Assembly: GCA_963704825.1 (NCBI GenBank)
Contig: CAVPHV010000021.1
Span: forward strand, 38,771 to 102,770
DNA from: an uncultured Acidimicrobiia bacterium
Lineage (GTDB): Bacteria > Actinomycetota > Acidimicrobiia > Spongiisociales > UBA5794
Direction of reading: 5' to 3'
DNA: 64,000 nt
Part shown: in pieces, positions 3,310-24,810 of the stretch
Position numbering within the stretch: position 1 is the first letter of the stretch
Layout: every line of letters starts with the position of its first letter
The notes under the pieces: model-generated
The model's input: only the letters and a program-made list of their open reading frames with translations
Told to the model about the DNA's origin: nothing
Database searches by the model: none
Program-made: the position numbers and the translations under genes

Positions 3310-6300
3310 TCAGCTTACGCTGAACCGCACCCATGGCTTGGTCTGGTCCGAATTGCCCGCCGCGTCATCGGCGCGAAGGCTGATGGCAAACTGCCCAGGA
3401 GCCGTCGGCGTGAAGTCGTAGCTCCACGTCGTGAGCGTTCCACCCGGTGTCCCCAGCGTGGTGTCGCCCGGGATCCAGATCCAGCCAACCTGCCAGTCGG
3501 TTCCGTTCCAGAACAGAGTGTTGGCGACGTCCTTGATCGCGATCCGGACCCGTGACACGCCGACGTTGTCCGTGGCCTCACCGGAGAACGTGATCGGGCC
3601 AACGGGGAAGTCCTGGTTGTTGGTCGGGACAATCACGGTTCCGTTCGGGTCGATCGTGTCCGGCACCTGGTCGGTGAGGTAGAACAGCACCCACGGCTTC
3701 GATTGGTCTTGGTTCCCGGATGTGTCTTCCGCCCGCACCAAGATGTTGAACTCACCGGCGGCCGGAGGAATCCAGCCCAGGCTCCACGCCGTGCTCGGCG
3801 CCCCCGGGTTGGCCAGCACCGTCTGCAAATACCGGAACCCGGTCACCCAACCCGTCCCGTCCCAGTACTGGTCGGTGAGACGATTCTTGATCGCGATCTC
3901 GACCTCAGCCACGCCCACGTCGTCGGTGGCTTCGCCGGAGAACCCGGTCCACGTCGCCATGTCGTAGGTCGCCTGGTGCAGTGGCACCGCTACGGTGGCA
4001 TCCGGCTCGACCGTATCCCCGGTCGGGATCGTGAGAGAGAAGGCCACCCAGGGCTTGGTTTGGTCCTGGTTGCCGGAGGTGTCTTCGGCCCGAACCAGGA
4101 CGGCATAGTTGCCCGGTCCGGCCGGCACCCAGTCGTTGCTCCAGTCGGTATCCACCGCATTGGGTGCGGCCAACACCGTCGGGAGGTAGACAAAGGCGGT
4201 CTGCCAAGTAAGGCCGTTCCACCAGGTTCCGGCATCACGATCTTTGATGGCAACGACGACCTCGGCAACCCCGACATCGTCGGTTGCGTTGCCGGTAATG
4301 CCGGTCCACGTTGGCAATGGGTAGGTCTGCAGGTGCTGCGGAACGGTGACCGTTGCGTCCGGATCCACCGCGTCCGGCGGCAGTTCGCTCACGGAGAACC
4401 GAACCCACGGACGGGTCGAGTCACTGTTGCCGGCGCCGTCGGTGGCCATCACCGCAATGCCGAAGTCGCCCTCCCGCGGCGTCCACGCAAAGGTCCATCC
4501 GGTGGACACCCCGCCCGGAGCGTCGAGGACGGTGACGTGACGCTTGTAACCCGGGGAGAACGTCACGCCGTCGGCCTCGAGCCACTCGTCCGTGTTGCGA
4601 TCCTTGATCGCGACCTGAACCATGGCGACTCCGCTGCCATCGACCTCGTCTGTTGCGGTTCCGGAGATCACGGCGATTTCGGCAGCCGTATACACCTCGT
4701 CGTTCACCGGCAGCGTGACCTCACCGTTTGGCTCGGTGGTGTCGGGCGGCGTCGGCCCCGAAAGTGCCAGGTCCCAGTACGTGATTCGGTTGTTGTCGTG
4801 GTCGCTGACGGCGAGCGTCATCTCGTCCGGCGACACTGCGACACCCTTGGGGCCGCTCAGCTGTCCGAGGCCAACCGCCGTGGAGAAGGTGCCCGAGGTT
4901 CCGAAGAACTTGACCAGATTGTTGCCCGAGTCGGCGACCAGCAGCATTTCGCTGTCGCCAAACATCTCAACCGCAAGGTTGTGCGGGTTGCGCACCTGAT
5001 TCTGAGCGGTGCCTCCGGTGACAATGGTCCCGATCAAGTCACCGGCAGCGTTGTACTTTGTGATCGAGTCGGTGGCGCCGTCGTTGGCGGAATAGATGTT
5101 GCCGGCGGAGTCGACGGCGACGCCGCGCGGTGACACCACGGAAGCCGTGATCACATCGAGGGTGAAGCCGGTGACATCCAAACGGATCAACCGGTTGTTG
5201 AGGGTGTCGGCGATCCAGTAGGAACCGTCGGCGGCAATCGCCGTCTGATGGGGCCGACCAAGCGTCGTCGACACCGGCACAACCGTGGAGTCAAAGGTGC
5301 CATCGGCTGCGAACAGTGACAGGCGGTTGTTCTCGCTGTCGGTCACGACAACTCTGCCGTCGGCCGCCATGATGGCGGCACGCGGGAAGATGAGGCCGCC
5401 GTCACCCGAACCGTAGGCACCCCACTCGGTGGCAAACGACCCATCAGGGTTGAACTTCTGCATCCGATGGTTGAACCAGTCGGCCACGTAAAGGTTGCCG
5501 GCGTCGTCGTAGGTGAGGCCGAACGGGCCGTTGAACCCACCGGGACTCGGCGGCGTTCCGCCAATCGTCTCGGCATACGAAGGCGCGCCACCACTCACGG
5601 TGAACCGCTGCAACTGGAATGACCACTGGTCGCTGACCACAACGTCGCCGTTGTCCATGAAGATCCCCGAAGGCTGCCGGAACTGGCCGGGGCCGTTCCC
5701 GTAGCCGCCGATCGGCGCCGCAATGGGGGTTCCGTTGGTCTGGACGTGAGCCAGCTGCAGGTTCCTCGCATCACCCACCCAGAGCCCGCCGCTGCCGTCG
5801 GCGGCGATGGCGCGGGGACGGTCGATGAAGAAGCTGCCGAGCTCGGCGCCCGTCGTCGGGTTCAGCGAAACGACCCGGTCGTTGTCGGCATCACCGATGT
5901 ACAGATTGCCGTCATCGCCGATCTCGATCGTGCGTGGCCGCGACAGGGGTGTGCCGCCAACTTCTGTTGTCTGCCACATCTCGAGGTCGGTGGTCGCGTT
6001 GATCTTGACCACCCGGTTGTTGTAGGTGTCGGCAACGTAGACGCCGGTGGCATCGGCCACCACGCCCCATGGCCCGTCAAGTCCCGTGCCACGCAGCTCC
6101 GTCACCACCGTGCCGGTCTTGGTGATCTTGACCACCTTGTTGTCACCGCTGGATTGATCGCCAACCCAGAGGTGGACCCCGTCTGGGTCGAGGGCAACGA
6201 CCCGAGGGTCGTTCCAACCGACATCGGATACCACCGTGACGTTGCGAGCGGCGTCGATTCTCACGATCCGACTGTTACCCGAGTCGGCGACATACCAATT

Positions 6301-9300
6301 GGTTCCGTCGTGGGCGCCGTCGCCCGGGTAGAGCGGAGCCACTCCTGCGGGGTTCGAAGCCTCGCCGCCGTAGGTGTCGTCGAAGTTCACGAGATTCTCG
6401 CCGACGCGGAACTTCTGGACACGATGGTTGTAGGTGTCGGCTACGTACAGGAACCCGTTGTCGTAGCGCAGCGCGTGCGGCCGGGCGAACTCGCCGTTGC
6501 CGGTCCCCGGGGCGCCGAAGCCGTCACCGAGGTCGTTGAGGTCGCTGTCGAAGTGGCGGATCCGGCCGTTGCCGGTGTCGGCAACCCAGAGGGTGCCGTC
6601 GGCAGCCAGTGCGATGCCTTCAGGAGCTGAGAGCCCTGCGGCGGCCTGCGCAACGAAGGTGCCATTGATGGTGAGCTTCTGGATCCGGTTGTTGCCGGAG
6701 TCGGCAACGTACATGTGCGTGTCGTCGACGGCCACACCCTGGGGAGTGTTGAACTGTCCATCCCCGATCCCAAAGCTCCCGATCGCGGCGCCGTAGGTGT
6801 CCGTGGCCGGGTTGTACGGAAGGATGCGGAAGTTGTACGTATCCACGATGTAGAGGATGCCGTTGTAGAACGTGAGCCCCTCAGGTCCGTTCAGTGGGCT
6901 TCCCGGGGGACCCTCGGTCTCGAAGCTGCTCCCATTGAGGTTCGCATCCCAGAGTTGCACTCCGCCGCCGCGAGTGTCGGCCGCCCAGACCGTACCGTCG
7001 TCGGCGACGGCAACAGCCTCCGGCCAGCTGAAGGTGCCCGGAGCAGTTGCGCGCGAACCCTTGTGAGCAACATAGTTGCCGTTGGCATCGAGCTTCTGGA
7101 TGCGATGGTTGAGCCGCTCCATGACGTAGATCGAGCCGTCGGGTCCGATGTCAATGCCGTAGGGCTGGGCGAACCCGGGAACGGGGGCCGTGGCGCCCTC
7201 GATCGACGAAGCGTAGGTCCCATCGGGGTTGAAGACCTCGATGCCGTTACCCCAGAAGTCCAGGCCGTAGACCTTGCCAGCAGAGTCGATGGCGACGCGG
7301 CGCAGGTGGTTGAATAGCCCAGGCTCGAAGCCGGGCGCGCCGGGGTCGACACAGAAGTCGGGGTGAACCGAGCAACGGCCTGCCCACTCTGCGGTGAAGG
7401 ACCAGTCGCCTGCGCTGTAGTCGTAGATGACGACACGGCCGGTTCCGGTGTCGGAGACGTACATCCGATTGCCGGTCGAATCCCACACCATGTTGTACGG
7501 GAAGTTCAGGTCTCCGTCGCCGGGACCGCCGAGTTCGTACACCGGGGTCGAGTTCCACGAACCCCCAGGGGTGACGTCGAAGGCCTTGATACGGTGGTTC
7601 TTGTAGTCGGACACCCAGAGGTAGCCGTCGGGACCCCGCGCCGCGTCGCGCGGACCGTTGAGGCCAACCGCCGGTGAGACCCACTGGAATACGCCGGCGG
7701 CATCCCACGCTTTGATTCGGTCCTGAGCGCTCGACGCCACGAGGACCTGGCCGTTGACGGCATCCCAGCTCAAACCGATAGGTGTGTTCAGGCAGTCGCT
7801 ACAGGTGCCCGTCGTCCCTCGGGTCCACACGTGATTGCCCGCGGCGTCGAACTTCTGAATCCGGTCGTTCTCGGCGTCGGCAACATAGATGTTCCCCACA
7901 TCATCGATCGCGACGTCGCGGGGGCTCTCGAACTCGCCGTCTGCTCCGCCATCGGAACCAAACTCGCCGAGCTTGGTCCCGTCGAGGGCGTAGCGCAGAA
8001 TCCGGTCCATCCCGGTATCGGCGATCACGAGCTGATTGTTGGTGGCGTCGTATTCGAACCCCGACGGATACATCGCAGCGGTTGACTGACCCGCCGGCGT
8101 GCCCACATACGGTGCGGGGGCATCAGCCACGGCAATGTCCCACGTGAACACGTGGATCTGGTCGTTGTAGGTGTCGGAGACGTAGACGAGATCGCCGTCG
8201 ACCGTAACCGCGGCTGGATGGTTGAAGCCCGGGCCGCTGAACTCGCCGATCACGTTGTAGGTGCCGTCCATGATGACGATCTTGTTGTTGTTGGAGTCGG
8301 CGACGTAGATACGACCGAGGTCATCGACGGCGATGCCTTCGGGATGGTCGAAGCCGCGGTCGACGTTGCGCTCGGTCACATAGTTGACGCCGTCGCTGGT
8401 TTGGACGACCTTGATCCGGTTGTTGTTGGTGTCCGAGATCAGGAGCCGGCCGCTGATGGGATGGACGACCACTCCCTGCGGGTTGAGCATCTGACCCCAG
8501 TTGGATCCTTTGGACCCGTACTTGCCGAGGTACTGGCGAGTGGCGACGTCATACGCCTTGATCCGGTGGTTCTCGGTGTCGGCGATGAAGGCAATGTTGT
8601 CGGTCTCGCGAATGTCGAGGGCGTAGGGCCACACAAACTGATTGTCGCCATCACCCGCACCGGCTCCGATGAACTCGATGCCCGTGCAGTTGGGATCAAC
8701 GATTTGGATGCGGTGCTGCTTGGTGTCGGCAATCCAGATCTCACCGGTGGTCTTGTCGACTTCGAGACCGCGCGGCCAGTTGAACTTTCCGAGCTCAGCC
8801 CCGGCAGACGCTCGAGTTCCACAAACCGAGATGACCTCTCCGCCGCCGGTCACGTTGCCTTCAGCGTCCAAGGTGAGTGGGTTCATCCGTACGAACCTGT
8901 GGTGCACGGTATCGATGACGTTGAGAACGCCGTCGGCGCCGATCCCCACTTCGCGTGGCTCGTGGAATACCGAGGTATCGGACGGGACCCCCGGCGGGGT
9001 GCCGATCTCCTGGGCCCAGACATACCCGGTTGGGGTGCGCTCGAAGCGCTCGACCTTGAAGCCCCACAGGTCGGAAACCCAGACGTCGCCGGAACCGTCC
9101 GTGGCGACAGCAGAACGGCGCATCGTCGTGATGGTGCCGGTCGTCTCGGGAGTGCCCTCCACACCGAACTTGTCGATGAACGTTCCGTCGAGTTCGAACG
9201 TCTGCACCCGGAAGTTGAGCGCATCGGCGACGTAGAGGATCTCCCGACCAAGCACCGGGTCGGTGGCCACTCGAACGCCGTACGGCGTCTTGAATTGCCC

Positions 9301-10044
9301 ATTGCCGGTACCCGTCGTCCCCCAGGTGGTGCAGGTGTCGTCGAGGGCGATTTTGGCGATCTCGTTGGTCTCGTAGCCGGCGACGTACACGTTGCCGGCG
9401 GAATCGGCGGTGGCGTCGCGGATGCCGGCGAAATTCAGACACGCGTCGTTTGCGGTGAGGTCATCATGGACGATCTCACGCAGGGTCGAGAAGTCCGTGG
9501 TGTCGATAACCCGCACCCGCTTGCGCCCGGTATCGGCGAGGTAGAGCAGGTCGTCGGTGATTGAACCGCCCATCGGGAAGTTCACGTCCTTTGCGACCGT
9601 GCCCGTGTAGGTGTCGGTCCAGACGCCGTTCGGGTCGAGTTTCACAACGCGCGAGTTGCGGGTGTCTATCACAAAGACGTTGCCGACTGAATCGACCGCA
9701 ACATCACGCGGGTTGTCGAATTGGTTGATGCCGGCACCCCACTCGCCGATCCGCCACAGCTCATTGCCGCTCTGGTCGAACTTCACGATCTGGTTGTTGC
9801 CGGTGTCCGCCACGACCAGCGTGTTGTCGACCGCCGACGTCTCGAGGCCCGACGAGTAGATCTGACTGTGCGAAGGCCCGCCGAGTGTTCCGAGGTATTG
9901 CGGCGTCAGGCCGGCGTCGGCCTTCACCTGGGTTGGGGTGATGATCACCATCGAAACCAGCAGAGCCAACGCCAAGGCGAGGGCGATCAAACCGCGGGCC
10001 TGGGCACGCCCGAGTGTGATTGAAGTGGTCCTGTGCGTTGTCAT
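3310..10044 (-). CDS. Giant secreted NHL-repeat (multi beta-propeller) protein with four C-terminal Trp-rich Ig-like repeats
   Basis: 2244-aa ORF with a signal peptide and many F-x-x-P-x-G/D-[VI]-A-V-D...YVAD-x-x-N-x-R-I-Q-K-F repeats. Four G-x-A-T-D...W-x-G-x-x-W...RA-x-D-x-x-GN-x-D-x-T-K-P-W repeats. Confidence 0.9.
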   Translation of the reverse strand: MTTHRTTSITLGRAQARGLIALALALALLVSMVIITPTQVKADAGLTPQYLGTLGGPSHSQIYSSGLETSAVDNTLVVADTGNNQIVKFDQSGNELWRIGEWGAGINQFDNPRDVAVDSVGNVFVIDTRNSRVVKLDPNGVWTDTYTGTVAKDVNFPMGGSITDDLLYLADTGRKRVRVIDTTDFSTLREIVHDDLTANDACLNFAGIRDATADSAGNVYVAGYETNEIAKIALDDTCTTWGTTGTGNGQFKTPYGVRVATDPVLGREILYVADALNFRVQTFELDGTFIDKFGVEGTPETTGTITTMRRSAVATDGSGDVWVSDLWGFKVERFERTPTGYVWAQEIGTPPGVPSDTSVFHEPREVGIGADGVLNVIDTVHHRFVRMNPLTLDAEGNVTGGGEVISVCGTRASAGAELGKFNWPRGLEVDKTTGEIWIADTKQHRIQIVDPNCTGIEFIGAGAGDGDNQFVWPYALDIRETDNIAFIADTENHRIKAYDVATRQYLGKYGSKGSNWGQMLNPQGVVVHPISGRLLISDTNNNRIKVVQTSDGVNYVTERNVDRGFDHPEGIAVDDLGRIYVADSNNNKIVIMDGTYNVIGEFSGPGFNHPAAVTVDGDLVYVSDTYNDQIHVFTWDIAVADAPAPYVGTPAGQSTAAMYPSGFEYDATNNQLVIADTGMDRILRYALDGTKLGEFGSDGGADGEFESPRDVAIDDVGNIYVADAENDRIQKFDAAGNHVWTRGTTGTCSDCLNTPIGLSWDAVNGQVLVASSAQDRIKAWDAAGVFQWVSPAVGLNGPRDAARGPDGYLWVSDYKNHRIKAFDVTPGGSWNSTPVYELGGPGDGDLNFPYNMVWDSTGNRMYVSDTGTGRVVIYDYSAGDWSFTAEWAGRCSVHPDFCVDPGAPGFEPGLFNHLRRVAIDSAGKVYGLDFWGNGIEVFNPDGTYASSIEGATAPVPGFAQPYGIDIGPDGSIYVMERLNHRIQKLDANGNYVAHKGSRATAPGTFSWPEAVAVADDGTVWAADTRGGGVQLWDANLNGSSFETEGPPGSPLNGPEGLTFYNGILYIVDTYNFRILPYNPATDTYGAAIGSFGIGDGQFNTPQGVAVDDTHMYVADSGNNRIQKLTINGTFVAQAAAGLSAPEGIALAADGTLWVADTGNGRIRHFDSDLNDLGDGFGAPGTGNGEFARPHALRYDNGFLYVADTYNHRVQKFRVGENLVNFDDTYGGEASNPAGVAPLYPGDGAHDGTNWYVADSGNSRIVRIDAARNVTVVSDVGWNDPRVVALDPDGVHLWVGDQSSGDNKVVKITKTGTVVTELRGTGLDGPWGVVADATGVYVADTYNNRVVKINATTDLEMWQTTEVGGTPLSRPRTIEIGDDGNLYIGDADNDRVVSLNPTTGAELGSFFIDRPRAIAADGSGGLWVGDARNLQLAHVQTNGTPIAAPIGGYGNGPGQFRQPSGIFMDNGDVVVSDQWSFQLQRFTVSGGAPSYAETIGGTPPSPGGFNGPFGLTYDDAGNLYVADWFNHRMQKFNPDGSFATEWGAYGSGDGGLIFPRAAIMAADGRVVVTDSENNRLSLFAADGTFDSTVVPVSTTLGRPHQTAIAADGSYWIADTLNNRLIRLDVTGFTLDVITASVVSPRGVAVDSAGNIYSANDGATDSITKYNAAGDLIGTIVTGGTAQNQVRNPHNLAVEMFGDSEMLLVADSGNNLVKFFGTSGTFSTAVGLGQLSGPKGVAVSPDEMTLAVSDHDNNRITYWDLALSGPTPPDTTEPNGEVTLPVNDEVYTAAEIAVISGTATDEVDGSGVAMVQVAIKDRNTDEWLEADGVTFSPGYKRHVTVLDAPGGVSTGWTFAWTPREGDFGIAVMATDGAGNSDSTRPWVRFSVSELPPDAVDPDATVTVPQHLQTYPLPTWTGITGNATDDVGVAEVVVAIKDRDAGTWWNGLTWQTAFVYLPTVLAAPNAVDTDWSNDWVPAGPGNYAVLVRAEDTSGNQDQTKPWVAFSLTIPTGDTVEPDATVAVPLHQATYDMATWTGFSGEATDDVGVAEVEIAIKNRLTDQYWDGTGWVTGFRYLQTVLANPGAPSTAWSLGWIPPAAGEFNILVRAEDTSGNQDQSKPWVLFYLTDQVPDTIDPNGTVIVPTNNQDFPVGPITFSGEATDNVGVSRVRIAIKDVANTLFWNGTDWQVGWIWIPGDTTLGTPGGTLTTWSYDFTPTAPGQFAISLRADDAAGNSDQTKPWVRFSVS

Positions 10045-10424: not shown

Positions 10425-10841
10425 TCAACGGAACCGCACCATCACCTCGTGATTCCCCCGGCCGGGAGGCGGTCCAACGTCTCGATCTTCCACTTCAACC
10501 CAGGCATGAGCAGAGATGTCCTCCCCCGCTTCGGGGAGGCCGATGGCGAGCAGGGCGGGAGATCGCTGCTCATGAAGCACCCGAAACACGACCAATGACC
10601 CGATGAGACAACGTGGCCGATAGGGCCCCAACCGGAGGAGGCGATACGTTGCCCAGCTCACCCGACGCGGCGGATGCACATCGCGGGCGACCGACGCGCC
10701 CACCGCCAGGTTGCGAACGAGTTCCGGGAGGGGGCGGCGGCGCAGTCGCAACCCGACCTGCACGACCACAAAGGCCCGGAAGATCCGCAGCGCGAGGCGG
10801 ATTCGACTCGCCGCCGAAACAGGCGCCCATGAGTCGGTCAT
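10425..10841 (-). CDS. Lasso peptide biosynthesis B2 protein (transglutaminase-like leader peptidase)
   Basis: 138 aa with catalytic motifs RCLIGS and AHAWVE. ATGA overlap with the upstream kinase gene. Confidence 0.88.
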   Translation of the reverse strand: MTDSWAPVSAASRIRLALRIFRAFVVVQVGLRLRRRPLPELVRNLAVGASVARDVHPPRRVSWATYRLLRLGPYRPRCLIGSLVVFRVLHEQRSPALLAIGLPEAGEDISAHAWVEVEDRDVGPPPGRGNHEVMVRFR

Positions 10842-11764
10842 CGCGCTACTGCCGAGGCGATCCTCGCCACCGTTGCCTCGAGTGCCTCCAAGACCATTGG
10901 CCGTCGCAAATCGAGGGTCGGAACGGAGTCGACGAGATCGCTCAAGTGGCCGAGCTTTTCGGCATGAGCTTCGCGTGTCGGTAGATGGAGGCTGAGCAGC
11001 CAGAGATCTCGTAGAGCGAGAGCGGGTTGCACAGGTTCGAGATGAACCGAATCTGCCTCACCTTTGAGCAACACCGTCGCGGCGATCGGCAACGGCCGGC
11101 CGGAACCGCGCCGCTCTCCATCGAGCGCCATGAACTCGCGATCCCCGTCTCCGCCGACCACCCGCAGCTCCAGATCTGCAGCAATCCCGGCAACATCCGT
11201 CCGCACCCTGACTCCGGCGGGCCCCGGGAAGACCATGGGCGTCGGCGACGTCAAACGGACTCGGACGAGATCCTCGCTCAAGATCCGATAGCCCTGTCGA
11301 GCGAAACCCAACGCCAGCGAAGTCTTCCCATGGCGGCTCGGGCCGGCCAACAGAACGGCCCGCCCATCGACCTCGACCGCGGCGGCGTGCAGGGGCATGT
11401 CGCCGGCGGCCAGGAAGATCAGCAGCGTCGGGAGTCCCCACAGCCGTTGCTCGCGCTTGACCACGTTGGGCGAAGTCGGTACGCCGATGAAGTTCGTGGC
11501 AGGATCCACCACATACCAGTCGTTGGGCTCGATCCACAGGTGAAAGGGCCCTTGCGGCTCCCCATACAGTCGAGCCGCAAAGGGCTGCCTACCGCCGCGC
11601 TCCCATTCGAACACAAGACGCTCGAGCGGTTGACGGGGCGGATCAACTTCGACCACCGTCAAGAGCTCACCGCTGCCCTTGCGCAAGTAGGCGAACTCGA
11701 GGTCGGATGCGACGCTATAGCCGTGGCAGACGCCATGCACGGAGAGGTCAACCGGAGCGTTCAT
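10838..11764 (-). CDS. HPr-kinase-like lasso peptide kinase
   Basis: LHAAAVEVDGRAVLLAGPSRHGKTSL (His motif plus Walker A) and ILSED. Start reassigned to ATG 11764, which overlaps the cyclase stop (ATGA). Confidence 0.82.
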   Translation of the reverse strand: MNAPVDLSVHGVCHGYSVASDLEFAYLRKGSGELLTVVEVDPPRQPLERLVFEWERGGRQPFAARLYGEPQGPFHLWIEPNDWYVVDPATNFIGVPTSPNVVKREQRLWGLPTLLIFLAAGDMPLHAAAVEVDGRAVLLAGPSRHGKTSLALGFARQGYRILSEDLVRVRLTSPTPMVFPGPAGVRVRTDVAGIAADLELRVVGGDGDREFMALDGERRGSGRPLPIAATVLLKGEADSVHLEPVQPALALRDLWLLSLHLPTREAHAEKLGHLSDLVDSVPTLDLRRPMVLEALEATVARIASAVAR

Positions 11765-13545
11765 GTGAACAGACTCACGAAGGCGTGGACGCGAGCCAAA
11801 TCGTAAGCCCACATCAGGTCTTGGGACGACAGGTTCCGCGACTCGATGCGCTCGATCAGTCGCGAATAGTCGACACCCGGCATGCGATAGTCGGCATCGT
11901 CGACCCAACCCAACAGTTGGTCGTAGGGAGCAGTAGCGATCATGTGCTCATCGAAGACCGTCTTGTCCGTTCTCCACAGGATCGTGTCCGGCAGCCGGCC
12001 CCGCATGGCGTTGCGCAGCAGCGATTTTGGCAGCGGGTTGGGGTGCTTCACCTCTGCCCTGAGGCTGAGCAAGAACTCCCACAGATCTCGATCGGCGAAC
12101 GGCCGCCGGACCGTGATCCCCAGCCGATCGGCAAAGATCTCGTCCGCCTCCATCGTCGCCGAGGCACCGCGGGTGGGTTCCAGCTGGGGCGCACTCCACC
12201 GCTCCCGCAGTGGCGAGGAGAGGTCGGTTCGCAAACGTGACCCGCCATGAGCTTCCGGTCGAATCCAATCTGGGATCAGCCGATTGTACCGTCGCGCCAA
12301 TCCCGTGTACCGGGCACCAAGCGCTCCCGGCGTGAGGTCCCGCCCCAACTGTCGCACCAGCGCCAGGCGGGTGCGTCCCTCGCGGCGGCGGGCGGTGACT
12401 TGACTCCGCAGCGCTCCAAAACGGCCGCGCAACAAGAGGTGCCCGAGGAAGCCGGCCCGGATGGTGAGTGCGTACTCGGCGAGGTCTCCCGTCATCACGG
12501 TGGAGGCACCGAGCCGGCGTGCCATGCCGTACCCTTCGCACACCAACGGTGCCGGCAGGCTGTCCCAGGGACCGTCGGCGAGGTCGACCCAATCGGCCAG
12601 ATCATCGATCGGACGAGCCTGCTGCTCGTACATGTGAACCTCGATGCCGAGGTAGGCGGCCACCTCCGCGGTGTAAGCCGACTCGTCGGTTGTCTGGTGG
12701 GCCGGGAAGACTGCCGAGTAGGCCGATAGAGGCACACCGGCCACCTCGACATGGGCGGGGGCAGCGAACGCGGCAATCGTGGTCGAGTCGAGCCCTCCGC
12801 TGAGGGCAACCGCGTCGGAGCCGGTGATGTAGCGCGTCACCGTCTGATCGAGGAGCGCCCTGAGCCGCTCGCTCGCCTCGGGTACGGTGAGTGATGAGGT
12901 CTCGAGGAGCGGGGCCGGATCCCAATACCGTGAGGCCGTGAAGGTCGACCGTGTGGCGGTGGCCAGGCACCCACCCATCATTCGCTCGACGCCGGCGATC
13001 GCCGTGTGCGAGTCCATCCCGCGATAGAAGAGCTCTTCGACCACATCCATGTCGGGCCGCCGGGACAGGTCCGATGCGGCGGCGACCATCTTGGCCTCGG
13101 TGGCGAACACCAGGCGCTCGCCCGTTCTCCGATAGAACAGCGGACGCGACCCGAGGTGATCCCGGAACCCCCACGTGGTCGTGCCGTCGGTGACGACGCC
13201 GGCGAATGCGCCGCGAAGTCGCTCAACCGCTGCTCCTCCCCAGCTACGAAAGGTCGCGAGAGTCAGCGCCGCTGCGCTCGCCCCCGATGCGGGTCGCAGC
13301 GGACCGGCCACGGCGGCCGCCAGTTCGGAGTCGTTGTCGATCGTGCCGTGGAGTACGGCCGCCCAGCCGTCCGCAACCGCGAGCGAAATGGTCGCATCGT
13401 TCGGCCGTCGACACACGGCAAGGTGGGTGGAACCGACCGTGTCCGCCCCGGCGAGAGTGCCTCGATGTGGAGCCGCAGCCAGGCCTCGGCGGGCGCGTTC
13501 GGCACGTCCCGGATCGGCATCGATCAGCGCAACAAACGCTCCCAT
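11761..13545 (-). CDS. Asparagine-synthetase-like lasso cyclase / isopeptide-bond-forming enzyme
   Basis: Start reassigned to ATG 13545 (AGGAG RBS). No N-terminal Cys. Motifs LRGAFA, RDHLGSRPLFY, PP-loop LSGGLDS, RRPFAD, KSLLRNAM...R-x-DK. Confidence 0.88.
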   Translation of the reverse strand: MGAFVALIDADPGRAERARRGLAAAPHRGTLAGADTVGSTHLAVCRRPNDATISLAVADGWAAVLHGTIDNDSELAAAVAGPLRPASGASAAALTLATFRSWGGAAVERLRGAFAGVVTDGTTTWGFRDHLGSRPLFYRRTGERLVFATEAKMVAAASDLSRRPDMDVVEELFYRGMDSHTAIAGVERMMGGCLATATRSTFTASRYWDPAPLLETSSLTVPEASERLRALLDQTVTRYITGSDAVALSGGLDSTTIAAFAAPAHVEVAGVPLSAYSAVFPAHQTTDESAYTAEVAAYLGIEVHMYEQQARPIDDLADWVDLADGPWDSLPAPLVCEGYGMARRLGASTVMTGDLAEYALTIRAGFLGHLLLRGRFGALRSQVTARRREGRTRLALVRQLGRDLTPGALGARYTGLARRYNRLIPDWIRPEAHGGSRLRTDLSSPLRERWSAPQLEPTRGASATMEADEIFADRLGITVRRPFADRDLWEFLLSLRAEVKHPNPLPKSLLRNAMRGRLPDTILWRTDKTVFDEHMIATAPYDQLLGWVDDADYRMPGVDYSRLIERIESRNLSSQDLMWAYDLARVHAFVSLFT

Positions 13546-13761
13546 CAAGACTCCTGTCCCCCGCGTCGCCGGCCCTCCAGGGGACCGCCACAAACTACCA
13601 TCGAATGCCAGCCAGCATCTCGAACCAAGCGTTGGCACCACCCGTTCAACCGACCCGCGGACCAAACGCCCCCGACCAAGAAAAGGGTGGCCTATCCAGC
13701 GCCGGTCGAGTACGCTTGGTCTCCAAGAGAAGGCAACCGGAATGGGGCATGGGGGAACATC

Positions 13762-13932
13762 ATGAAACCAGAGTCTTTGATCACGTACGAGCGACCCACG
13801 GTCGTTGACCACGGAAGCATCGCGGACCACACCTTCGCCGTATTCGGCGTACCCGCGGCAACGGCCGGCAAGACGGGCAGCGGTCCGTCGTTCCGTATGG
13901 ACAGCTTGGGCGAAGGCTCCGGCCTTTCGTAG
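13762..13932 (+). CDS. RiPP precursor peptide with a lasso-type leader, 56 aa: MKPESLITYERPTVVDHGSIADHTFAVFGVPAATAGKTGSGPSFRMDSLGEGSGLS
   Basis: GGGGGA RBS then ATG at 13762, TAG at 13930-13932. YERPTVVDHGSIADHT matches the lasso leader YxxPx(L/V)xxxGxxxxxT. Directly upstream of the PqqD/RRE gene. C-terminal Ser. Confidence 0.88.
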   Translation: MKPESLITYERPTVVDHGSIADHTFAVFGVPAATAGKTGSGPSFRMDSLGEGSGLS

Positions 13933-13964
13933 AGACCATTCGAGACAGCGTGCCGGGTTTGCAC

Positions 13965-13995
13965 CCGCCCGCCAACGTCATGGCGGCGGCGTTTC
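13965..13995 (+). terminator. Possible hairpin (attenuator or stabiliser) between the precursor and RRE genes
   Basis: ccgcccgcca-acgtca-tggcggcgg stem with one bulge, followed by cgtttc. Confidence 0.35.
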
Positions 13996-14020
13996 AATAC
14001 GCCCCCTTTGAGGTCCGTCC

Positions 14021-14302
14021 GTGATTGCCACAACTGCTCGGATCGAGCCCAATCCTGTCGTGATCTACCGCGATCTGTCCGAGGGCGCCGTACTCCTGCA
14101 CGCCGATAGCGGGCAATACCACGGGCTCAACCCGGTCAGCGCCGTGATCTGGCGGTACCTCGAGGAAAGCGGCACCGCCGACTTCGGATCCGTCGTCGCC
14201 GCGGTGGAGACCTCGGTCGTCGACCCGCCGCCAGAACTGGCGTCCGACGTTTCCGACTTCATAGAGGACCTTGCCGGGCGCGACCTGGTCTTCATCACCT
14301 AG
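14021..14302 (+). CDS. PqqD-family RiPP recognition element (lasso B1)
   Basis: 93 aa: YRDLSEGAVLLHADSGQYHGLNPVSAVIW...DVSDFIEDLAGRDLV, a typical RRE pattern. Confidence 0.9.
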   Translation: MIATTARIEPNPVVIYRDLSEGAVLLHADSGQYHGLNPVSAVIWRYLEESGTADFGSVVAAVETSVVDPPPELASDVSDFIEDLAGRDLVFIT

Positions 14303-15440
14303 GCGAATCGGTCTCCTCGGCGCGAGCGAGCGACGCGAAGTAGTCGGCGCGTCCTCCGTCCAGCCGGCGAGAGGGTTCGAGCACGTCAGGGGCCGGCGTT
14401 ACCCGGTTCTGCGCCCACCGCACACTTCGTGCCCCGAGGGCGCGTCCGGTTCCAGTCGCAGCCGACCGCAGCGAACTGGACCACACCTCGGCAAGTCCCG
14501 CCTCCGACGTTGCCGATGCATAGGGCCAGCGCCGCTCGACCTGCGCGGTGATCGCCCGTTGCGCCGCTGCGGGCTGAAGGGCCGCCACAACATCCTCGGG
14601 AACCGGGGCATCAGCGAGTCGGTGCGCCCGCAACAGCGAGAGCCACACCAGGGACCCGACCTGCCACGCCCGAGCCCGGGCCACAACATCTGGCCACGAC
14701 AGTCCGCCGCGCTCGATCAAGTAGCGGAGGTCCACGGAGGCCAACAGACGCCGCCCACCCCCCAGCGCCGCGTTCGTCGCGACATGCACGATCGTGTCTT
14801 CGGGACTCATCGTGTCGACCGCGAAGCCACCGACCTTGACACGAACCCGACGATCAAAGAGTGGCTGAATGGGGACGCCGAAGGACTCCCGCACCGAGCC
14901 GCGGTTCATGAGATGCCAATGCAGATCGACCATGTTTCCGAATGGCGTCCGCAGGTGGAGTTGGCTCCTCCGTTCGCTGAGGACCAACTCCCAGTTGGCG
15001 TCGATGAGATCACAGCCGACCGCCTCGAGCGTTTCCACCGCACCCTCGAAGTCCGCAGCGGCAACGAGAAGGTCGATGTCGCCATACGGTCGCAGACTGG
15101 GGTCTCGATACACGCACTCCGTGAGCACCGGGCCCTTGAGGGCCATCATGGCGATTCCCGCGGCATCAAGCGCTGCGGAGATCCGCCGCAGGTCGGCCAG
15201 GACCGCAATGTGGGTGGTCACCCGGCGGTCGGACCACGATCGCAGTTCGTCGACCAGAATGCCATCGGCGGAGATCCGCTCGAGGTCGTGGAGCAGTAAA
15301 CCCTGCAGCCGGTTGGCAGACACCAACGGAGTCAAACGAGTCAGATCGGCCGACCCCATCGCGGCGAAGGCGGTCGCACCACTGAGGTCGCGGCGTGCGA
15401 TCGCCAGGATCGGATCATCGAACAATGCTCGCCGTGCCAC
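14295..15440 (-). CDS. Nucleotidyltransferase family protein (NTP_transf_5-like, lasso-cluster associated)
   Basis: Motifs MALKGPVL, Y-x-DPSLRPYGDIDLLV and VDLHW. Confidence 0.85.
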   Translation of the reverse strand: MARRALFDDPILAIARRDLSGATAFAAMGSADLTRLTPLVSANRLQGLLLHDLERISADGILVDELRSWSDRRVTTHIAVLADLRRISAALDAAGIAMMALKGPVLTECVYRDPSLRPYGDIDLLVAAADFEGAVETLEAVGCDLIDANWELVLSERRSQLHLRTPFGNMVDLHWHLMNRGSVRESFGVPIQPLFDRRVRVKVGGFAVDTMSPEDTIVHVATNAALGGGRRLLASVDLRYLIERGGLSWPDVVARARAWQVGSLVWLSLLRAHRLADAPVPEDVVAALQPAAAQRAITAQVERRWPYASATSEAGLAEVWSSSLRSAATGTGRALGARSVRWAQNRVTPAPDVLEPSRRLDGGRADYFASLARAEETDSPR

Positions 15441-15524: not shown

Positions 15525-18500
15525 CTAGTTGACCGAGAACGGGACCCAGGGTTTGGTCGGGTCCTGCTTACCGGACGTGTCCTGGGCTCGCACCCACAGC
15601 GCAAAGTCACCGCTGCCCGGCGCCGACCAGGAATACGACCAGCCGGTTGTCGGTTGGTCGGGATTGTCCAGCGTCGTCTCCAGCACAGTCCACGAGCCCC
15701 ACCCGGTCCCCGTCCACCACTGGTTGGTGACCGTGTTGCGAATGGCGATGTCCACCTCAGCCACACCGATATCGTCGGTCGCCGTACCGGACATGTTCAC
15801 CGTCGTGCTCGGGAACGACTGGTTGTTGCTCGGAACGGTCACGGTTGCGTTCGGGTCCTCGACGTCGGTGCCGCCACCGCCCGACGAGATACTGAACGGA
15901 CGCCACACCTTGGTCGGATCCTGATTACCGGACGTGTCGTCGGCCCGTACCCACAAGGAGTACTGACCATCGCCAGGACCGTTGAAGACGTACGACCAAT
16001 CGGTGCTCGTGCCACCCGGGTTGGTGAGCGTCGCTTGATGCGTCGCCCAGCCGCCCCATCCGGTCCCGTTCCACCATTGATTGGTGGCATTGTTCCGAAT
16101 CGCAACCAGGACCTGACCGACGCCGACATTGTCGGTGGCCGAACCTTGCAGGGTCGGCTGGGCATCGGTCAACACCTGACCGTTGACTGCCGGCACACTC
16201 GCCGTGGCATCCGGCGGCGTCGTATCCGCCACCGCACTCACCTCAACCGTGATCTGCGCCGGCGTCGGATCGACGTTCGGGATCGCATCGGACGCCCGCG
16301 CCGTAACCGTCACCGATCCCGCCAGATTGGCGTTCCAGTTGTAGGACCACCCGGTTGAGGTCGCCCCTGGACTGCTCACCGTGGCCGCGACTGCGGTCGG
16401 GCCGGCCTGCCACGACCCACCGGTCCAGTACTGGTTCGTCGTCGTGTTGTGGATCTCCACGTCAACCCCGGTAACCCCGACGTTGTCGGTGGCGTTACCC
16501 GTGATCGTCACATTCCCGAACAACAGGCTCGCCCCGTTGCCGGGAGAGCCAATCGTCGTGTCCGGCGCAATCGCATCAGCCACCGGGTCGGCGGTGAAGC
16601 CGACGATCTCCGGCGACGCGTCGGCATTGCCGAACGCATCACGCGCCCCAGCCGTAACCGTGTAGTCACCAGGCGGCGCCACAAAGTCATACGACCAATC
16701 CGTGCTCAACCCCAACGGTGCCGACAAGTTCGCCGAAACCACTGCGATCACCGAGTCAAACCCGGAGCCATCCCAGTAGAACCCGGTCGCATCATCAACA
16801 ATCGTCAGATCTATCCCAGCCACACCGGTGTCATCCGACGCGGTCCCCGAAATGGTGACCGGACCGGCATCGACCGACGAACCATCCGCCGGGAAGCCGA
16901 GCGTCGTCTCCGGAGCCACGGTGTCGGTTCCCTCGATCGCCGACACCGTCACTGTGGGCGGCGCCGGGTCCTCATTGCCATCCAGATCGCTCGCAATAGC
17001 GGTGATCACATAGGTGTCGACACCGTCCGGTGTGAAGTCGAAGGACCAGTCGGTCGACGCTTCGACCGGATTGGTCAACGTCGCCGGCGCAAACCGCTCA
17101 CTCGACGACCACGAAGCGCGTGACGCCCGCCACCAATACCCATCGGACTGGCGCTGGATATACACATCGACATCCGCGATGGCAACGTTATCGGTAGCAG
17201 CACCACCGATCTGGAGCGCAACGCCAACACCAACTACGGCCGCGTCCGGTGGCGAGGTCAGTGTCGTCGCCGGTGCTACCTCATCGGGTGCGATCGTGAA
17301 GTTCCTCACTCCCTTGGGTGACTTGTTGCCGGACAGGTCGATTGCCTCAACGAACACCCGGTAGTTGCCGCCCGGGGCCAGCCACGGGAAGCTGAAGCCG
17401 GTCGATACATCCCCGGGGGCATCGATCTCGGCGTCCCACCACCGGAACGCCGTCGAGAAACCGCTCCCGTTCCACCAACCATTGGCGTCGAGATCCTTGA
17501 TGGCGAGATGGACCAGGTCGATCCCGCCGGCATCGGTGGCCGTCCCGGAGATGAGGACCTCACCGGGAGGATTGGCCGAGCCCTCCAGTGGGGTACTCAT
17601 CGTCACCGCCGGAGCGACGATGTCATCCGCCGGTGGCGGGGGCACCGGCGGCGGCGTTGCCCCACCGACGGCAAACGAACCCATCACCGGGTTGCCCAGA
17701 TTGCCGGCATGGTCGCGGGCGCGCGTCTCGATCGTGTAGCGACCGGACTGCGAGCCGCCGAGGAACTCCCACTGCCATTGCACCGACGTCGCCGGCGCGT
17801 TCGGTGCCGTCCAGGCTGCCCGGTTGCGCACCTTCGCCACCTGCCACGACGAATCGAACGCGTTCCAGTACAGACCGGAGTCGACGTCTTGGATCGCGAT
17901 TTCGACGTTGCCGACCGCGATGTTGTCCGCAGCGGTACCCGAGAGCTGGACGTTGCCGGCCGGCAACGAGGCGGCCGGTCCCGGCTGACTCATTGTCACC
18001 GTCGGCGCCACCAGCTCGAACTGCCTCGCAGCCAGGGGGTTGAACACCTGGATGCGGTCGTTGGCAGAGTCGGTGACGTAGATCCGGCCCTGGGGATCGG
18101 CCGCCAACCCAACCGGGTTGCGGAAGTCGTACGGGTTCGAGCCGTACGACGCACCCCAGCCACCCCGGTACGTGCCGTCGAGCTCGAACGCCTGCACGTT
18201 GCCGTTGCGCTCATCAGCGACATACAGCACCTCATTCGAGATCACACCGTCAACCGGATCCTGGAACTGGCCCGGACCGGTCCCACGCTCGCCGAACCCG
18301 AACAACTCGACACCGTCCTGATCGAACACCTGAATCGGCGTGCCGCCGCCGCGCATCACATAGATGTTCCCGGTAGCCGGGTCCACCGCCGTGCCGTGAT
18401 TCGGACTGCTGAACTGACTGATTTCCTGATAGGTGTCGGCGTCGAAGATCTTGACCACACCACCCATCCGGTCACCAATGATCACCCGACGCCCGTAGAA

Positions 18501-19883
18501 CTCGAAGTCCACCGGCCACCGGAAATGACCCGGATCCGTGTCGTCACTCCCGATCTGACCGATCTGACGAATGTAGTTCCCGCCGTACGTGTAGACCTGG
18601 AGATGGTGACCACGCTCATTGGCGATCCACACCCGGCGGGTCACCGGATCGATCCCGATCGACCGCGGGTAATTCATGTCATAGGCGCCACCCGGGCCGC
18701 GCTTGCCCCACGTATTGAGGAACTGACCCGAAGCCGAGAACCGATCAAACCGCTGATTCCAGGCCTCAACGATCCACACGTCGCCGGACTGGGCGTCGAC
18801 GGCGACGTCACGGGGCTGACCCAGATAGCCCTCAGGCGGCAGCCGCGACGGATCCGGCGCCTCCAGCAACGGAGTCCCAAACGCGTTGAACTTGAGCGTC
18901 CGGAACCCACCAAAGTCCGCCACCCACACATTCCCATCACCATCAACCGTGACCTGACGGCCACCACCGGTGAACTGACCGGGCCCATCCCCCTCGCTGC
19001 CGAAGCTGCTCATGTAGGCGCCCGTGTTGAGGTTGAAGACATCAACGTCGGAGTTCTCGGCATCAACGATGTAGACCCGGCCCAGGTCCTCGTTGATCGC
19101 CACCCCACGCTCATCACCACCAAGGAAGTTGCCGGCTGTTTCGCCGAGCAGGGTGCCGTCAGTCGAGTAGCGATAGACCCTTCGGTTCCACGCATCCGAC
19201 ATCCAGATCACACCGTCGGACGTGACGTCGACGCCGTAAAGCCGCGGCGCCTCGTTCACCGAATCCGGGAACACCGGCCACTGCTGGACGATCGTCACCT
19301 CTTCGGTGGCGTCGTTCCACTCGAGTTCGAGCATCCGCGGCGGGTTTGTTTCAGAGTTGGTGAAGTGGCTGTCCATCACCCACATGTGACCGTTGTCGTC
19401 GATCGTCAACCACACCGTATAGAACGCCCGGATCGTGTCGAACGAATTGCGCAAGGCGACGTCCTTGGAATACATGAAGTTGCCGTTGACGTCGTACTTG
19501 GCGATCGCAACATCCAGCGGGTTGTCCTTCAACTCCGATACGTAGATCGACCCATCATTGGGATCAATACCCACCGAATACGGCTGTCCGACGTGATCAT
19601 CACGCCAGAACTCACCGAGGTAGTTCCCCGAGGTGTCATAACGACGCAACTTGAAGTGCAGATAGTCCGACACGATGATCTCGTCGCTGACCGGGTTGTA
19701 CTGGACCCCCCACGAGAACACCCCAGGCCGGCCCTGCCCACCAATCGAACGCTCAAACCGTGGCGTCACCCACGGAGCCGAAGCCGCATCAGCAGGCGTT
19801 GCCGGCGTTGCCGCCACCAGTGCCGCTGCGATCACAAACAATGCAATGAGCGCCGTCAACCAGCGCCGCTGAATAGAAGCCAA
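15525..19883 (-). CDS. Secreted NHL-repeat protein with seven Trp-rich Ig-like repeats (paralog 1)
   Basis: 1452-aa ORF with TTG start and AGGGGGAG RBS. Signal peptide ending in ADA, then NHL repeats, then Ig-like repeats ending DPTKPWVPFSVN. Confidence 0.9.
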   Translation of the reverse strand: MASIQRRWLTALIALFVIAAALVAATPATPADAASAPWVTPRFERSIGGQGRPGVFSWGVQYNPVSDEIIVSDYLHFKLRRYDTSGNYLGEFWRDDHVGQPYSVGIDPNDGSIYVSELKDNPLDVAIAKYDVNGNFMYSKDVALRNSFDTIRAFYTVWLTIDDNGHMWVMDSHFTNSETNPPRMLELEWNDATEEVTIVQQWPVFPDSVNEAPRLYGVDVTSDGVIWMSDAWNRRVYRYSTDGTLLGETAGNFLGGDERGVAINEDLGRVYIVDAENSDVDVFNLNTGAYMSSFGSEGDGPGQFTGGGRQVTVDGDGNVWVADFGGFRTLKFNAFGTPLLEAPDPSRLPPEGYLGQPRDVAVDAQSGDVWIVEAWNQRFDRFSASGQFLNTWGKRGPGGAYDMNYPRSIGIDPVTRRVWIANERGHHLQVYTYGGNYIRQIGQIGSDDTDPGHFRWPVDFEFYGRRVIIGDRMGGVVKIFDADTYQEISQFSSPNHGTAVDPATGNIYVMRGGGTPIQVFDQDGVELFGFGERGTGPGQFQDPVDGVISNEVLYVADERNGNVQAFELDGTYRGGWGASYGSNPYDFRNPVGLAADPQGRIYVTDSANDRIQVFNPLAARQFELVAPTVTMSQPGPAASLPAGNVQLSGTAADNIAVGNVEIAIQDVDSGLYWNAFDSSWQVAKVRNRAAWTAPNAPATSVQWQWEFLGGSQSGRYTIETRARDHAGNLGNPVMGSFAVGGATPPPVPPPPADDIVAPAVTMSTPLEGSANPPGEVLISGTATDAGGIDLVHLAIKDLDANGWWNGSGFSTAFRWWDAEIDAPGDVSTGFSFPWLAPGGNYRVFVEAIDLSGNKSPKGVRNFTIAPDEVAPATTLTSPPDAAVVGVGVALQIGGAATDNVAIADVDVYIQRQSDGYWWRASRASWSSSERFAPATLTNPVEASTDWSFDFTPDGVDTYVITAIASDLDGNEDPAPPTVTVSAIEGTDTVAPETTLGFPADGSSVDAGPVTISGTASDDTGVAGIDLTIVDDATGFYWDGSGFDSVIAVVSANLSAPLGLSTDWSYDFVAPPGDYTVTAGARDAFGNADASPEIVGFTADPVADAIAPDTTIGSPGNGASLLFGNVTITGNATDNVGVTGVDVEIHNTTTNQYWTGGSWQAGPTAVAATVSSPGATSTGWSYNWNANLAGSVTVTARASDAIPNVDPTPAQITVEVSAVADTTPPDATASVPAVNGQVLTDAQPTLQGSATDNVGVGQVLVAIRNNATNQWWNGTGWGGWATHQATLTNPGGTSTDWSYVFNGPGDGQYSLWVRADDTSGNQDPTKVWRPFSISSGGGGTDVEDPNATVTVPSNNQSFPSTTVNMSGTATDDIGVAEVDIAIRNTVTNQWWTGTGWGSWTVLETTLDNPDQPTTGWSYSWSAPGSGDFALWVRAQDTSGKQDPTKPWVPFSVN

Positions 19884-24522: not shown

Positions 24523-24810
24523 TATCGCTTCCCCCTTTGTGCCCAAGCCCCAAACAATTCCTGGACCCCCAAACCAAGGGGGCCTCACCCTGTGCCCATC
24601 TTCTCACGAGCGCCCAAAAACCTCTAGCCCACAATGTGATGTCACACTGGAGAAGGCCGCCCGCCGGGCGCACCCTCCGCAGCCCGATCGCGACCGGTCA
24701 AGCCCGCAGCCGCAAATTCCTCTGACCGTGCGTCACCCACCGGGTCTAGAATGTGGTCGGGAATGAAGGTGGGGCCTGGCGACAGGCCGGGAAAACAGGG
24801 GGCGTGTCTG

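Follow-up and report, generated by a model that had tools for sequence, protein, structure and literature searches.

The window, as we call the 64,000-nucleotide stretch analysed here (contig CAVPHV010000021.1 of an uncultured Acidimicrobiia bacterium, positions 38,771 to 102,770), carries between positions 10425 and 15440 a gene cluster for a ribosomally made peptide that is modified after translation (RiPP). It belongs to a large family of RiPP clusters assembled from lasso-type components, which we regard as a variant form of lasso-type biosynthesis and possibly as a class of its own. In the precursors of this family, a lysine and an aspartate are held at a nearly fixed distance from each other while the core positions of both vary, indicating that the constrained unit is Lys...Asp and not N-terminus...Asp. 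The interpretation that fits best, and to which we give an even chance, is that the precursor is cut after a His-Thr-Phe site by the PqqD-type protein B1 together with the leader peptidase B2, that the Asn-synthetase-like enzyme C joins the side-chain amine (N-zeta) of Lys37 to Asp47, and that the HPr-kinase-like kinase K and the nucleotidyltransferase N decorate a Ser.

Analysis of open reading frames (ORFs) and comparison with Pfam and NCBIfam confirmed six genes in this interval, namely those of B2, K, C, the precursor A, B1 and N. A first-pass annotation, made from the letters of the DNA, had listed this enzyme set together with an uncalled 56-residue precursor at 13762-13932, and both were found where it had placed them. 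The leader of the precursor, YERPTVVDHGSIADHT-F, shows the exact spacing Yx2Px(L/V)x3Gx5Tx, and the 31-residue core, AVFGVPAATAGKTGSGPSFRMDSLGEGSGLS, has D22 and E26 as its sole acidic residues, as that annotation had also read. By gene content the cluster conforms to a lasso cluster, with matches to PF05402, PF13471 and PF00733, B2 scoring above its NCBIfam cut-off and the cyclase models staying under theirs. The lasso leader pattern Yx2PxLx3Gx5Tx, with Thr at position −2, was likewise present in the window and in 135 relatives. The product rule for lasso peptides, an acid at core position 7-9 as defined in PMC9266682, does not hold here, the acids being at 22 and 26 only.

A search with the precursor alone returned two 95%-identical proteins, both retaining every motif residue, and nothing else matched in its own genome; a 56-residue protein belonging to the precursor's 90% cluster was already present in the protein collection. 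A 47%-identical cluster was reached via the cyclase in genome G048 of the same order, where the precursor shares its leader with that of the window but not its core. This fragmented genome has four or more cyclase paralogues of the family on separate short contigs (L006, L010, L011, L012), and so holds several such clusters. When an alignment of four precursors was compared with 401 genomes of the order, clear matches (E ≤ 2.3e-4) were obtained in 22 genomes, and the leader YE[K/R]PxIxDxGSIxxHT[F/Y] was seen to precede very diverse cores. Profile A2, built from an alignment of 11 cyclase-linked precursors, recovered 276 representatives at E ≤ 1e-3 and 39 at 1e-10 from 1.84 billion protein cluster representatives. 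The nearest ESM Atlas clusters, which we take as a lead only, are named ‘hypothetical protein’ and ‘lasso RiPP family leader peptide-containing protein’. The existence of the two 95%-identical proteins and of the 276 representatives, and the presence of the same enzymes beside the genes in the loci fetched (see below), indicate that the precursor ORF is more than a chance reading frame.

The set subjected to analysis comprised 147 of 151 proteins; excluded were three long ones along with P0002, which nearly duplicates P0001. Leader residues were strongly conserved (n = 135: Y-17 in 118, P-14 in 132, G-8 in 135, I-6 in 132, H-3 in 120, T-2 in 133 and F-1 in 120). The motif D-x3/4-[E/D]-x-[S/T/A] was found in 135 of the 147 relatives, and in 134 of these 135 a Lys lies at least seven residues (counted inclusively) upstream of the motif Asp; with a slightly looser motif 140 sequences qualified, and 139 of them have the Lys. 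As the Asp is itself required by the motif search, its invariance is judged from the 11-sequence alignment and from the proportion of motif carriers. The inclusive Lys-to-Asp distance is 9 (44 sequences), 10 (52) or 11 (31) in 127 of 139 cases, even though the core position of the Lys ranges from 4 to 28 and that of the Asp from 7 to 38. In the window, K12, D22, E26 and S28 occupy the family positions with a spacing of 11. The residues flagged in the first-pass annotation (GSIxxHTF, the Lys, D-x3-E and the Ser) thus proved to be conserved throughout the family. For the terminal Ser, which it had flagged too, this is true in part, as 61 of 140 relatives end in Ser and 22 more in [S/T]-P, so that the residue is common and not universal; GLS, with which the window peptide ends, is more frequent than any other final triplet of residues (11 of 140). 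An acid at core positions 7-9, which would have made the window core a degenerate exception among its homologues, occurs in only 26 of 135 relatives and not at a conserved position. The notion of a decayed copy of a canonical lasso core was rejected, since the relatives have the same layout.

These positional data bear directly on a product in which, after B2 cleavage behind HTF, the Ala26 alpha-amine would be linked by C to either Asp47 (a 22-residue ring) or Glu51 (a 26-residue ring), with the Lys being kept for some other reason such as target binding. Such a giant head-to-side-chain ring, one of three options raised in the first-pass annotation, would preserve the known nucleophile, would agree with the presence of B2 in most clusters and would retain the segment preceding the Lys, in keeping with the cysteine counts described below. 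However, the Asp position spans 7-38, the first core residue is variable (T in 48, A in 13, Q in 11, others in the remainder), some cyclase-type loci lack B2, and neither the invariant Lys nor the fixed Lys-Asp spacing would be explained. We therefore disfavour this product and consider it highly improbable.

The spacing of 9-11 residues also invites a more conservative explanation, in which the leader is extended and a second cut near the Lys (after K-x, here K-T, or after K-T-G) exposes a new N-terminus that is joined to Asp47, thereby forming a canonical lasso with an 8- or 9-residue ring and the tail SLGEGSGLS. Cleavage after K-x would convert spacings of 9, 10 and 11 into rings of 7, 8 and 9 residues in 127 of 139 sequences, the residue following the Lys is confined to G, D, S and N in 118 of 139, and known chemistry would be retained. 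This cut was at first favoured for its 7-9 rings, and was downgraded on the basis of the cysteine content of the cores. Counted from HT[F/Y] to the end of the core, Cys residues are even in number in 132 of 134 representatives (17 with none, 115 with 2-10). In 46 of those representatives, which show nine different Cys distributions, the count ahead of the Lys is odd. The same parity was found in all 66 unique cores derived from fetched loci, 12 of them with an odd count before the Lys, and only 3 of these 66 overlap with the representative set. By contrast, cores from clusters without a cyclase gene do not follow the parity rule, 13 of 32 having a single Cys. If the cysteines pair with one another, which we assume as usual for exported peptides, the segment before the Lys would be kept in the product, because the count is even only when that segment is included. 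Cysteine parity thus argues against any second cleavage near the Lys. In addition, the would-be first residue of the product, K+2, is highly variable (Pro in 7, Phe in 17), 4-28 residues separate the Lys from the invariant HT[F/Y] site with its canonical B1/B2 spacing, the annotated clusters showed no gene for a second protease, and sister clusters without a cyclase gene use the same leader and B2 in the absence of a conserved Lys. Cleavage after K-T-G, also an option of the first-pass annotation, is contradicted by the parity and by the lack of such a protease gene in the annotated clusters, and we regard an extended leader followed by canonical lasso formation as decidedly unlikely.

The relationship between the motif and the cyclase gene was assessed in 103 fetched loci (20 genomic, 80 from metagenomes and 3 from other classes), in which the five enzymes were located by tblastn with the window proteins. 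Loci with at least 4 kb of flank on both sides were regarded as well covered, a C gene within 7 kb was scored as nearby, and unique cores were counted. Among cores with the K..[D/E] motif, 48 had C within 7 kb, one (L112) was well covered and had no C, and 15 had flanks that were too short, while the corresponding numbers for cores without the motif were 4, 19 and 12. Of the four motif-less cores near C, that of L080 is a frameshifted copy of a motif core, those of L100 and L126 (minus strand) are artefacts of the pattern search in an unrelated ORF, and the fourth is that of L147. At 1699-3711 of L147, a Lys-less core stands beside a cyclase gene whose halves match in different frames, and this cluster is probably decaying. 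The K..D motif hence goes with the cyclase gene, and of the options put forward in the first-pass annotation a side-chain isopeptide between Lys12 and Asp22 of the core agrees best with the data, given the invariant Lys, the spacing of 9-11 and the occurrence of the motif where the cyclase gene is present.

The typical order of a cyclase-type cluster is A-C-ABC ATPase-ABC-2 permease-B1-B2-K (ABC, ATP-binding cassette), with a single cyclase gene per cluster. K accompanies C in 11 of the 12 well-covered loci, and in 4 of these 12 cyclase-type loci tblastn with a single query did not find B2 within 7 kb. Likewise, genome G119, which is 91% complete and contains an A-C-K-B1-ABC locus, has no PF13471 match anywhere. 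Cyclisation therefore seems to be independent of B2, which fits a reaction without need of a fresh alpha-amine. A search of genome contigs with the cyclase only gave two distant Lachnospiraceae loci of 26-27% identity, which were not used. PF14907 genes also accompany related precursors: Pfam showed them in L058 and L048, tblastn in L043, L066, L091, L116, L132 and L146. A gene for a glycosyltransferase of the WecG/TagA family (PF03808), which may take part in glycosylation, adjoins two differently arranged cyclase-type clusters (L130, 6941-7873; L048, 2743-3972).

Which acid serves as acceptor can be approached through exceptional family members. In L126 (954-1080; the same core occurs in L135) the core starts with the Lys right after HTF, the Asp is at position 8, and a Leu stands at the Glu position; this cluster reads A-C-K, and neither B1 nor B2 was found in the 7.9-kb contig. 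In L094, L095, L107, L129 and L142, all beside a cyclase gene, the Asp is replaced by Glu in the sequence K-G-F-x-N-C-R-[I/V]-E-x4-E-L-S-H with a spacing of 9. Together, L126 and the Glu-for-Asp subfamily point to the first acid as the acceptor, although the variants with an x4 spacer and the Glu-variant subfamily would suit either acid and only L126 favours Asp. L126 also bears on a bicyclic product, in which Lys37 would be linked to one of the two acids, Asp47 or Glu51, and the N-terminal amine to the other, with a total loss of 36 Da. Two amines and two conserved acids are available for it, and the only member that has no N-terminal segment before the Lys is also without the Glu. This correlation is, however, a single case, each cluster has one cyclase gene, and the second ring would have no fixed size, making a bicycle the least probable of the products considered.

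In the pathway that we propose, B1 would bind the leader motif Yx2PxVx3G and B2 would cleave after His-Thr-Phe25, a site deduced from the canonical and invariant leader spacing, to free the entire 31-residue core. C would adenylate the side chain of Asp47 (core D22), and the attacking amine would be the N-zeta of Lys37 (core K12) rather than the new N-terminus. The predicted product is an 11-residue side-chain-to-side-chain macrolactam with two free tails, of 11 residues at the N-terminal and 9 at the C-terminal side. K would then phosphorylate a Ser, and the PF14907 enzyme would decorate the Ser phosphate. According to PMC8498205 and PMC9266682, the substrate of HPr-kinase homologues in lasso clusters is the linear precursor, which they phosphorylate at its C-terminal Ser, and in pseudomycoidin a hexose is attached to the Ser phosphate by the PF14907 enzyme; a motif His-Lys-Asp-Asp is named for lasso-cluster kinases in the latter source. 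By this precedent Ser56 would be modified, with the conserved Ser53 as the alternative, and the choice is left between the two because only 61 of 140 relatives end in Ser while 122 of 135 retain a Ser at D+6. Glu51 and Ser53 may serve recognition by the kinase or the cyclase. A lysinoalanine route, with the conserved Ser phosphorylated, eliminated and linked to the Lys, was rejected, as no lyase gene was seen, Ala, Val or Cys replaces the Ser in 8 of 135 relatives, and the cyclase would be left without a role. We infer each chemical step of this scheme, and any threading of a tail through the ring, from the gene set, the precursor, the conservation and spacing within the family and the link between motif and cyclase gene, which are what was observed.

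Several findings weigh against the proposed Lys-Asp linkage. We know of no lasso-cyclase homologue for which a Lys side chain serves as nucleophile, and to our knowledge a Lys-linked ring of 9-11 residues exceeds any lasso ring. The described lasso cyclases join the alpha-amine of residue 1 to an Asp or Glu at position 7-9 (PMC9266682). The Lys-Asp spacing minus two equals 7, 8 or 9, the canonical ring sizes, just as cleavage after Lys-x predicts. The conserved Glu51 and Ser53 are only loosely explained by the model, and the counts overstate independence, the sequences being mutually related. The parity argument is indirect, assumes mutual pairing of the cysteines and does not cover the window core, which is Cys-free. 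The absence of B2 was judged from a single Pfam model, applied to a genome of 91% completeness, and from tblastn with one query. The window member is itself atypical, with no His, no Cys, Leu for Phe at D+2 and no exporter gene nearby: no exporter or transporter gene belonging to the cluster was found in the window, which is atypical for the family. Finally, K matches PF07475 with 1.7e-5 and 24.9 bits, under the gathering score of 33.3.

Some of these features would also suit a different chemistry of C, such as coupling to some other molecule or peptide or action on the C-terminus, with K...D-x3-E-x-S acting as a recognition or activity motif, or an inactive window copy that yields a linear phospho(glyco)peptide. 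The Lys-Asp chemistry has been deduced from sequence, the window core is atypical in its composition, C scores under the NCBIfam lasso-cyclase cut-offs, and sister clusters work with B1 and K alone. On the other hand, a cyclase gene adjoins the motif in 48 of the 49 unique cores that are informative, the operon is unbroken and by its layout coupled in translation, the two 95%-identical precursors retain every motif residue, and contigs from RNA libraries cover the precursor, this last being weak evidence. We consider such alternatives unlikely.

The closest described systems are the lasso clusters of the paeninodin/pseudomycoidin type (PMC8498205 and PMC9266682), which share with the window split B1 and B2, an Asn-synthetase-like C, PF14907, the Yx2PxLx3Gx5Tx leader and a terminal Ser, and whose HPr-kinase homologue has a putative counterpart in K. 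Two hallmarks of phosphorylated or phosphoglycosylated lasso peptides, PF14907 (1.8e-39) and the terminal Ser (GLS), are present in the window; for a third, the HPr-kinase homologue, K shows a P-loop and matches that stay under the cut-offs. The cores of that type have their acid at position 7-9 and a ring formed with the alpha-amine, in contrast to the Lys-(7-9 residues)-Asp-x3-Glu-x-Ser arrangement found here at variable distance from the cut site. Moreover, K is nearly obligatory in the present family (11 of 12 well-covered loci) and is also found in clusters that lack the cyclase gene. Class V lasso peptides (lariocidin B, gelatinamin A) resemble the proposed product in having a Lys side chain in a macrolactam made by a lasso-type pathway. 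In PMC13178200, however, their Lys bond is described as a second ring to the C-terminus, made by an extracellular clostripain-like transpeptidase atop a canonical Gly1-Asp8 lasso, whereas in the present proposal the Lys takes over the part of the alpha-amine in the reaction of the cyclase. The six cluster proteins matched no peptidase family other than PF13471 in Pfam and NCBIfam, and the six genes thus include no clostripain-like transpeptidase.

Side-chain Lys-Asp/Glu macrolactams are also known from graspetides (omega-amide/ester RiPPs such as the microviridins), where they are made by ATP-grasp ligases. The type of product proposed here is alike, but no ATP-grasp domain was found among the Pfam matches of the six window proteins. 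Weak matches of the window kinase and PqqD protein to TIGR04352, TIGR04249, TIGR04248 and TIGR04353 recall the HPr-rel-A system and ScmC/ScmD of the SynChlorMet cassette, whose kinase and PqqD pairs resemble those sister clusters of the present family that consist only of precursor, PqqD and kinase. These matches are, however, far under the curated cut-offs (2.2e-10 for K against TIGR04352 HprK_rel_A), and the systems concerned, themselves uncharacterised, have not been described together with precursors of the present family. A sequence search of the PDB with C returned a hydroxyamidotransferase and beta-lactam synthetase only and no lasso cyclase structure, in agreement with a 2026 review (PMC13352647), according to which no lasso cyclase crystal structure exists. 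No published description of the precursor family or of a Lys-directed lasso cyclase was found in the full-text collection searched, which leaves out most subscription journals and all supplements, so that supplementary lists of mined precursors (e.g. of the RODEO type) could already contain them.

The features of the cluster are compiled in Table 1. C, K and B2 form a minus-strand operon in this order, from which A and B1 diverge on the plus strand, and the three enzymes are, judging by the ATGA start/stop overlaps at the C/K and K/B2 junctions, translationally coupled. The region between C and A is presumed to hold promoters. K contains the P-loop GPSRHGKTS. The ORF of C extends to 13830, beyond its ATG at 13545. 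Against the lasso cyclase model NF033535, C reaches 133.9 bits with a cut-off of 525, and it is also under the cut-off of NF033561; B1 scores 37.3 and 21.5 bits with the lasso PqqD models, both under their cut-offs. The cysteine at position 2 of enzymes of this type is the glutaminase Cys. It is missing from the N-terminus of C (MGAF), in which the ATP-binding loop SGGLDS is kept. The cluster is embedded among four very large NHL-repeat/Big_7 genes (1099-2244 residues) and a gene for an RTX-repeat protein, the coordinates of this array in the window being 3310-10044, 15525-19883, 20884-24588, 24751-28050 and 28275-31709. In related loci no link was seen between NHL/Big_7/RTX genes and the peptide cluster.

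Table 1. Features of the gene cluster, with positions in the window
Feature	Position	Strand	Basis
B2, lasso-type leader peptidase, transglutaminase-like, 138 residues	10425..10841	-	PF13471 1.9e-13; NF033537 lasso_biosyn_B2 48.9 bits (cut-off 33)
K, HPr-kinase-like Ser kinase (predicted)	10838..11764	-	ORF to 11908; likely start ATG at 11764
C, Asn-synthetase-like (lasso-cyclase-like) ATP-dependent amide-bond former (predicted), 594 residues	11761..13545	-	PF00733 1.1e-28; GATase_7 1.3e-13
Divergent intergenic region between C and precursor gene	13546..13761	.	gene layout
A, precursor, 56 residues	13762..13932	+	GGGGGA ribosome-binding site 7 nt 5' of ATG
Precursor leader, residues 1-25, MKPESLITYERPTVVDHGSIADHTF	13762..13836	+	NF033521 lasso leader 16.6 bits (cut-off 19)
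Precursor core, residues 26-56, plus stop codon	13837..13932	+	codon reading
Key core codons	Lys37 13870-13872; Asp47 13900-13902; Glu51 13912-13914; Ser53 13918-13920; Ser56 13927-13929	+	
B1, PqqD-type RiPP recognition element (RRE), 93 residues	14021..14302	+	PF05402 5.1e-13
N, PF14907 nucleotidyltransferase, 381 residues	14295..15440	-	PF14907 1.8e-39; convergent with B1

Clusters without a cyclase gene retain the leader, B1 and K, and some of them also B2, N and ABC genes, whereas the motif is absent. In L052-L057, L087, L089, L105, L106, L108, L119, L123, L138 and L140 only a PqqD and an HPr-like kinase gene are nearby (e.g. L055, 9272-9895), often with 2-4 tandem precursors. The motif G-x-S-G is present in their cores, and in many of these a lone Cys is found 3-5 residues upstream of it (C-[D/F]-P-G-G-S-G). 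These clusters may make a separate kind of peptide, either a phosphopeptide or one with a thioether. In L055 (6975-8603), genes for a serpin (PF00079, 2.7e-109) and for an ABC exporter immediately precede the tandem precursors on their upstream side. A further group has arginine-rich cores behind the same leader (L066/L067, about 1932-2030 and 2512-2610; L096, about 6469; L111, about 8016); the neighbours of these precursors are B1, K and B2, joined by N in L066/L067, and a cyclase gene is absent. L058 (5645-10892) and L060 consist of N, B1, ABC-2 permease, ABC ATPase, precursor, K and B2 without a cyclase gene, and their two-Cys cores end in DGCHHS. On sequence grounds, B2 of L058 and L060 can be expected to cut at the HTF site only.

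In a class-level sample, matches were obtained in 6 of 401 genomes, all of them in the window's own order and none in other orders, and in a sample of the phylum 3 of about 400 genomes, in other classes, were positive. DNA sequencing runs labelled as marine sediment, sediment, freshwater sediment and soil metagenome contained half or more of the words of the stretch; runs with a small share were left aside as evidence of habitat. Contigs from four metatranscriptome libraries match parts of it at 99% identity or more, and from the uncovered parts no conclusion is drawn. One of them, a 533-nt contig of RNA-library run X14 corresponding to 13568-14100, reaches from the 5' region across the entire precursor gene into the start of B1, and is a weak hint at transcription of the precursor, with DNA carry-over being possible.

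The first-pass annotation had called the cluster a candidate for a new RiPP class; the regularity of the precursor family supports this interpretation, and the class stays a candidate. In such a class, to which we assign slightly less than an even chance, a lasso-cyclase homologue would have switched its nucleophile from the alpha-amine to a Lys side chain, giving a two-tailed Lys-Asp macrolactam of 9-11 residues that may be threaded by its C-terminal tail and disulfide-locked to its N-terminal tail, and the module of leader, PqqD and HPr kinase would be a platform held in common with the cyclase-less phosphopeptide clusters. At least 276 representative precursors break the lasso rule in one consistent way, the consequence being either a new ring chemistry for this enzyme family or a new processing logic. 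The rule of an alpha-amine joined to an acid at position 7-9 is built into genome-mining tools and structure predictors (LassoPred assumes rings of 7, 8 or 9 residues, as stated in PMC12214591), and current lasso mining would mis-assign these cores. A Lys-directed cyclase, if true, would be a tool for making side-chain-stapled peptides that can be extended at the N-terminus, and the wider platform of leader, PqqD and kinase feeds at least two other uncharacterised peptide types.

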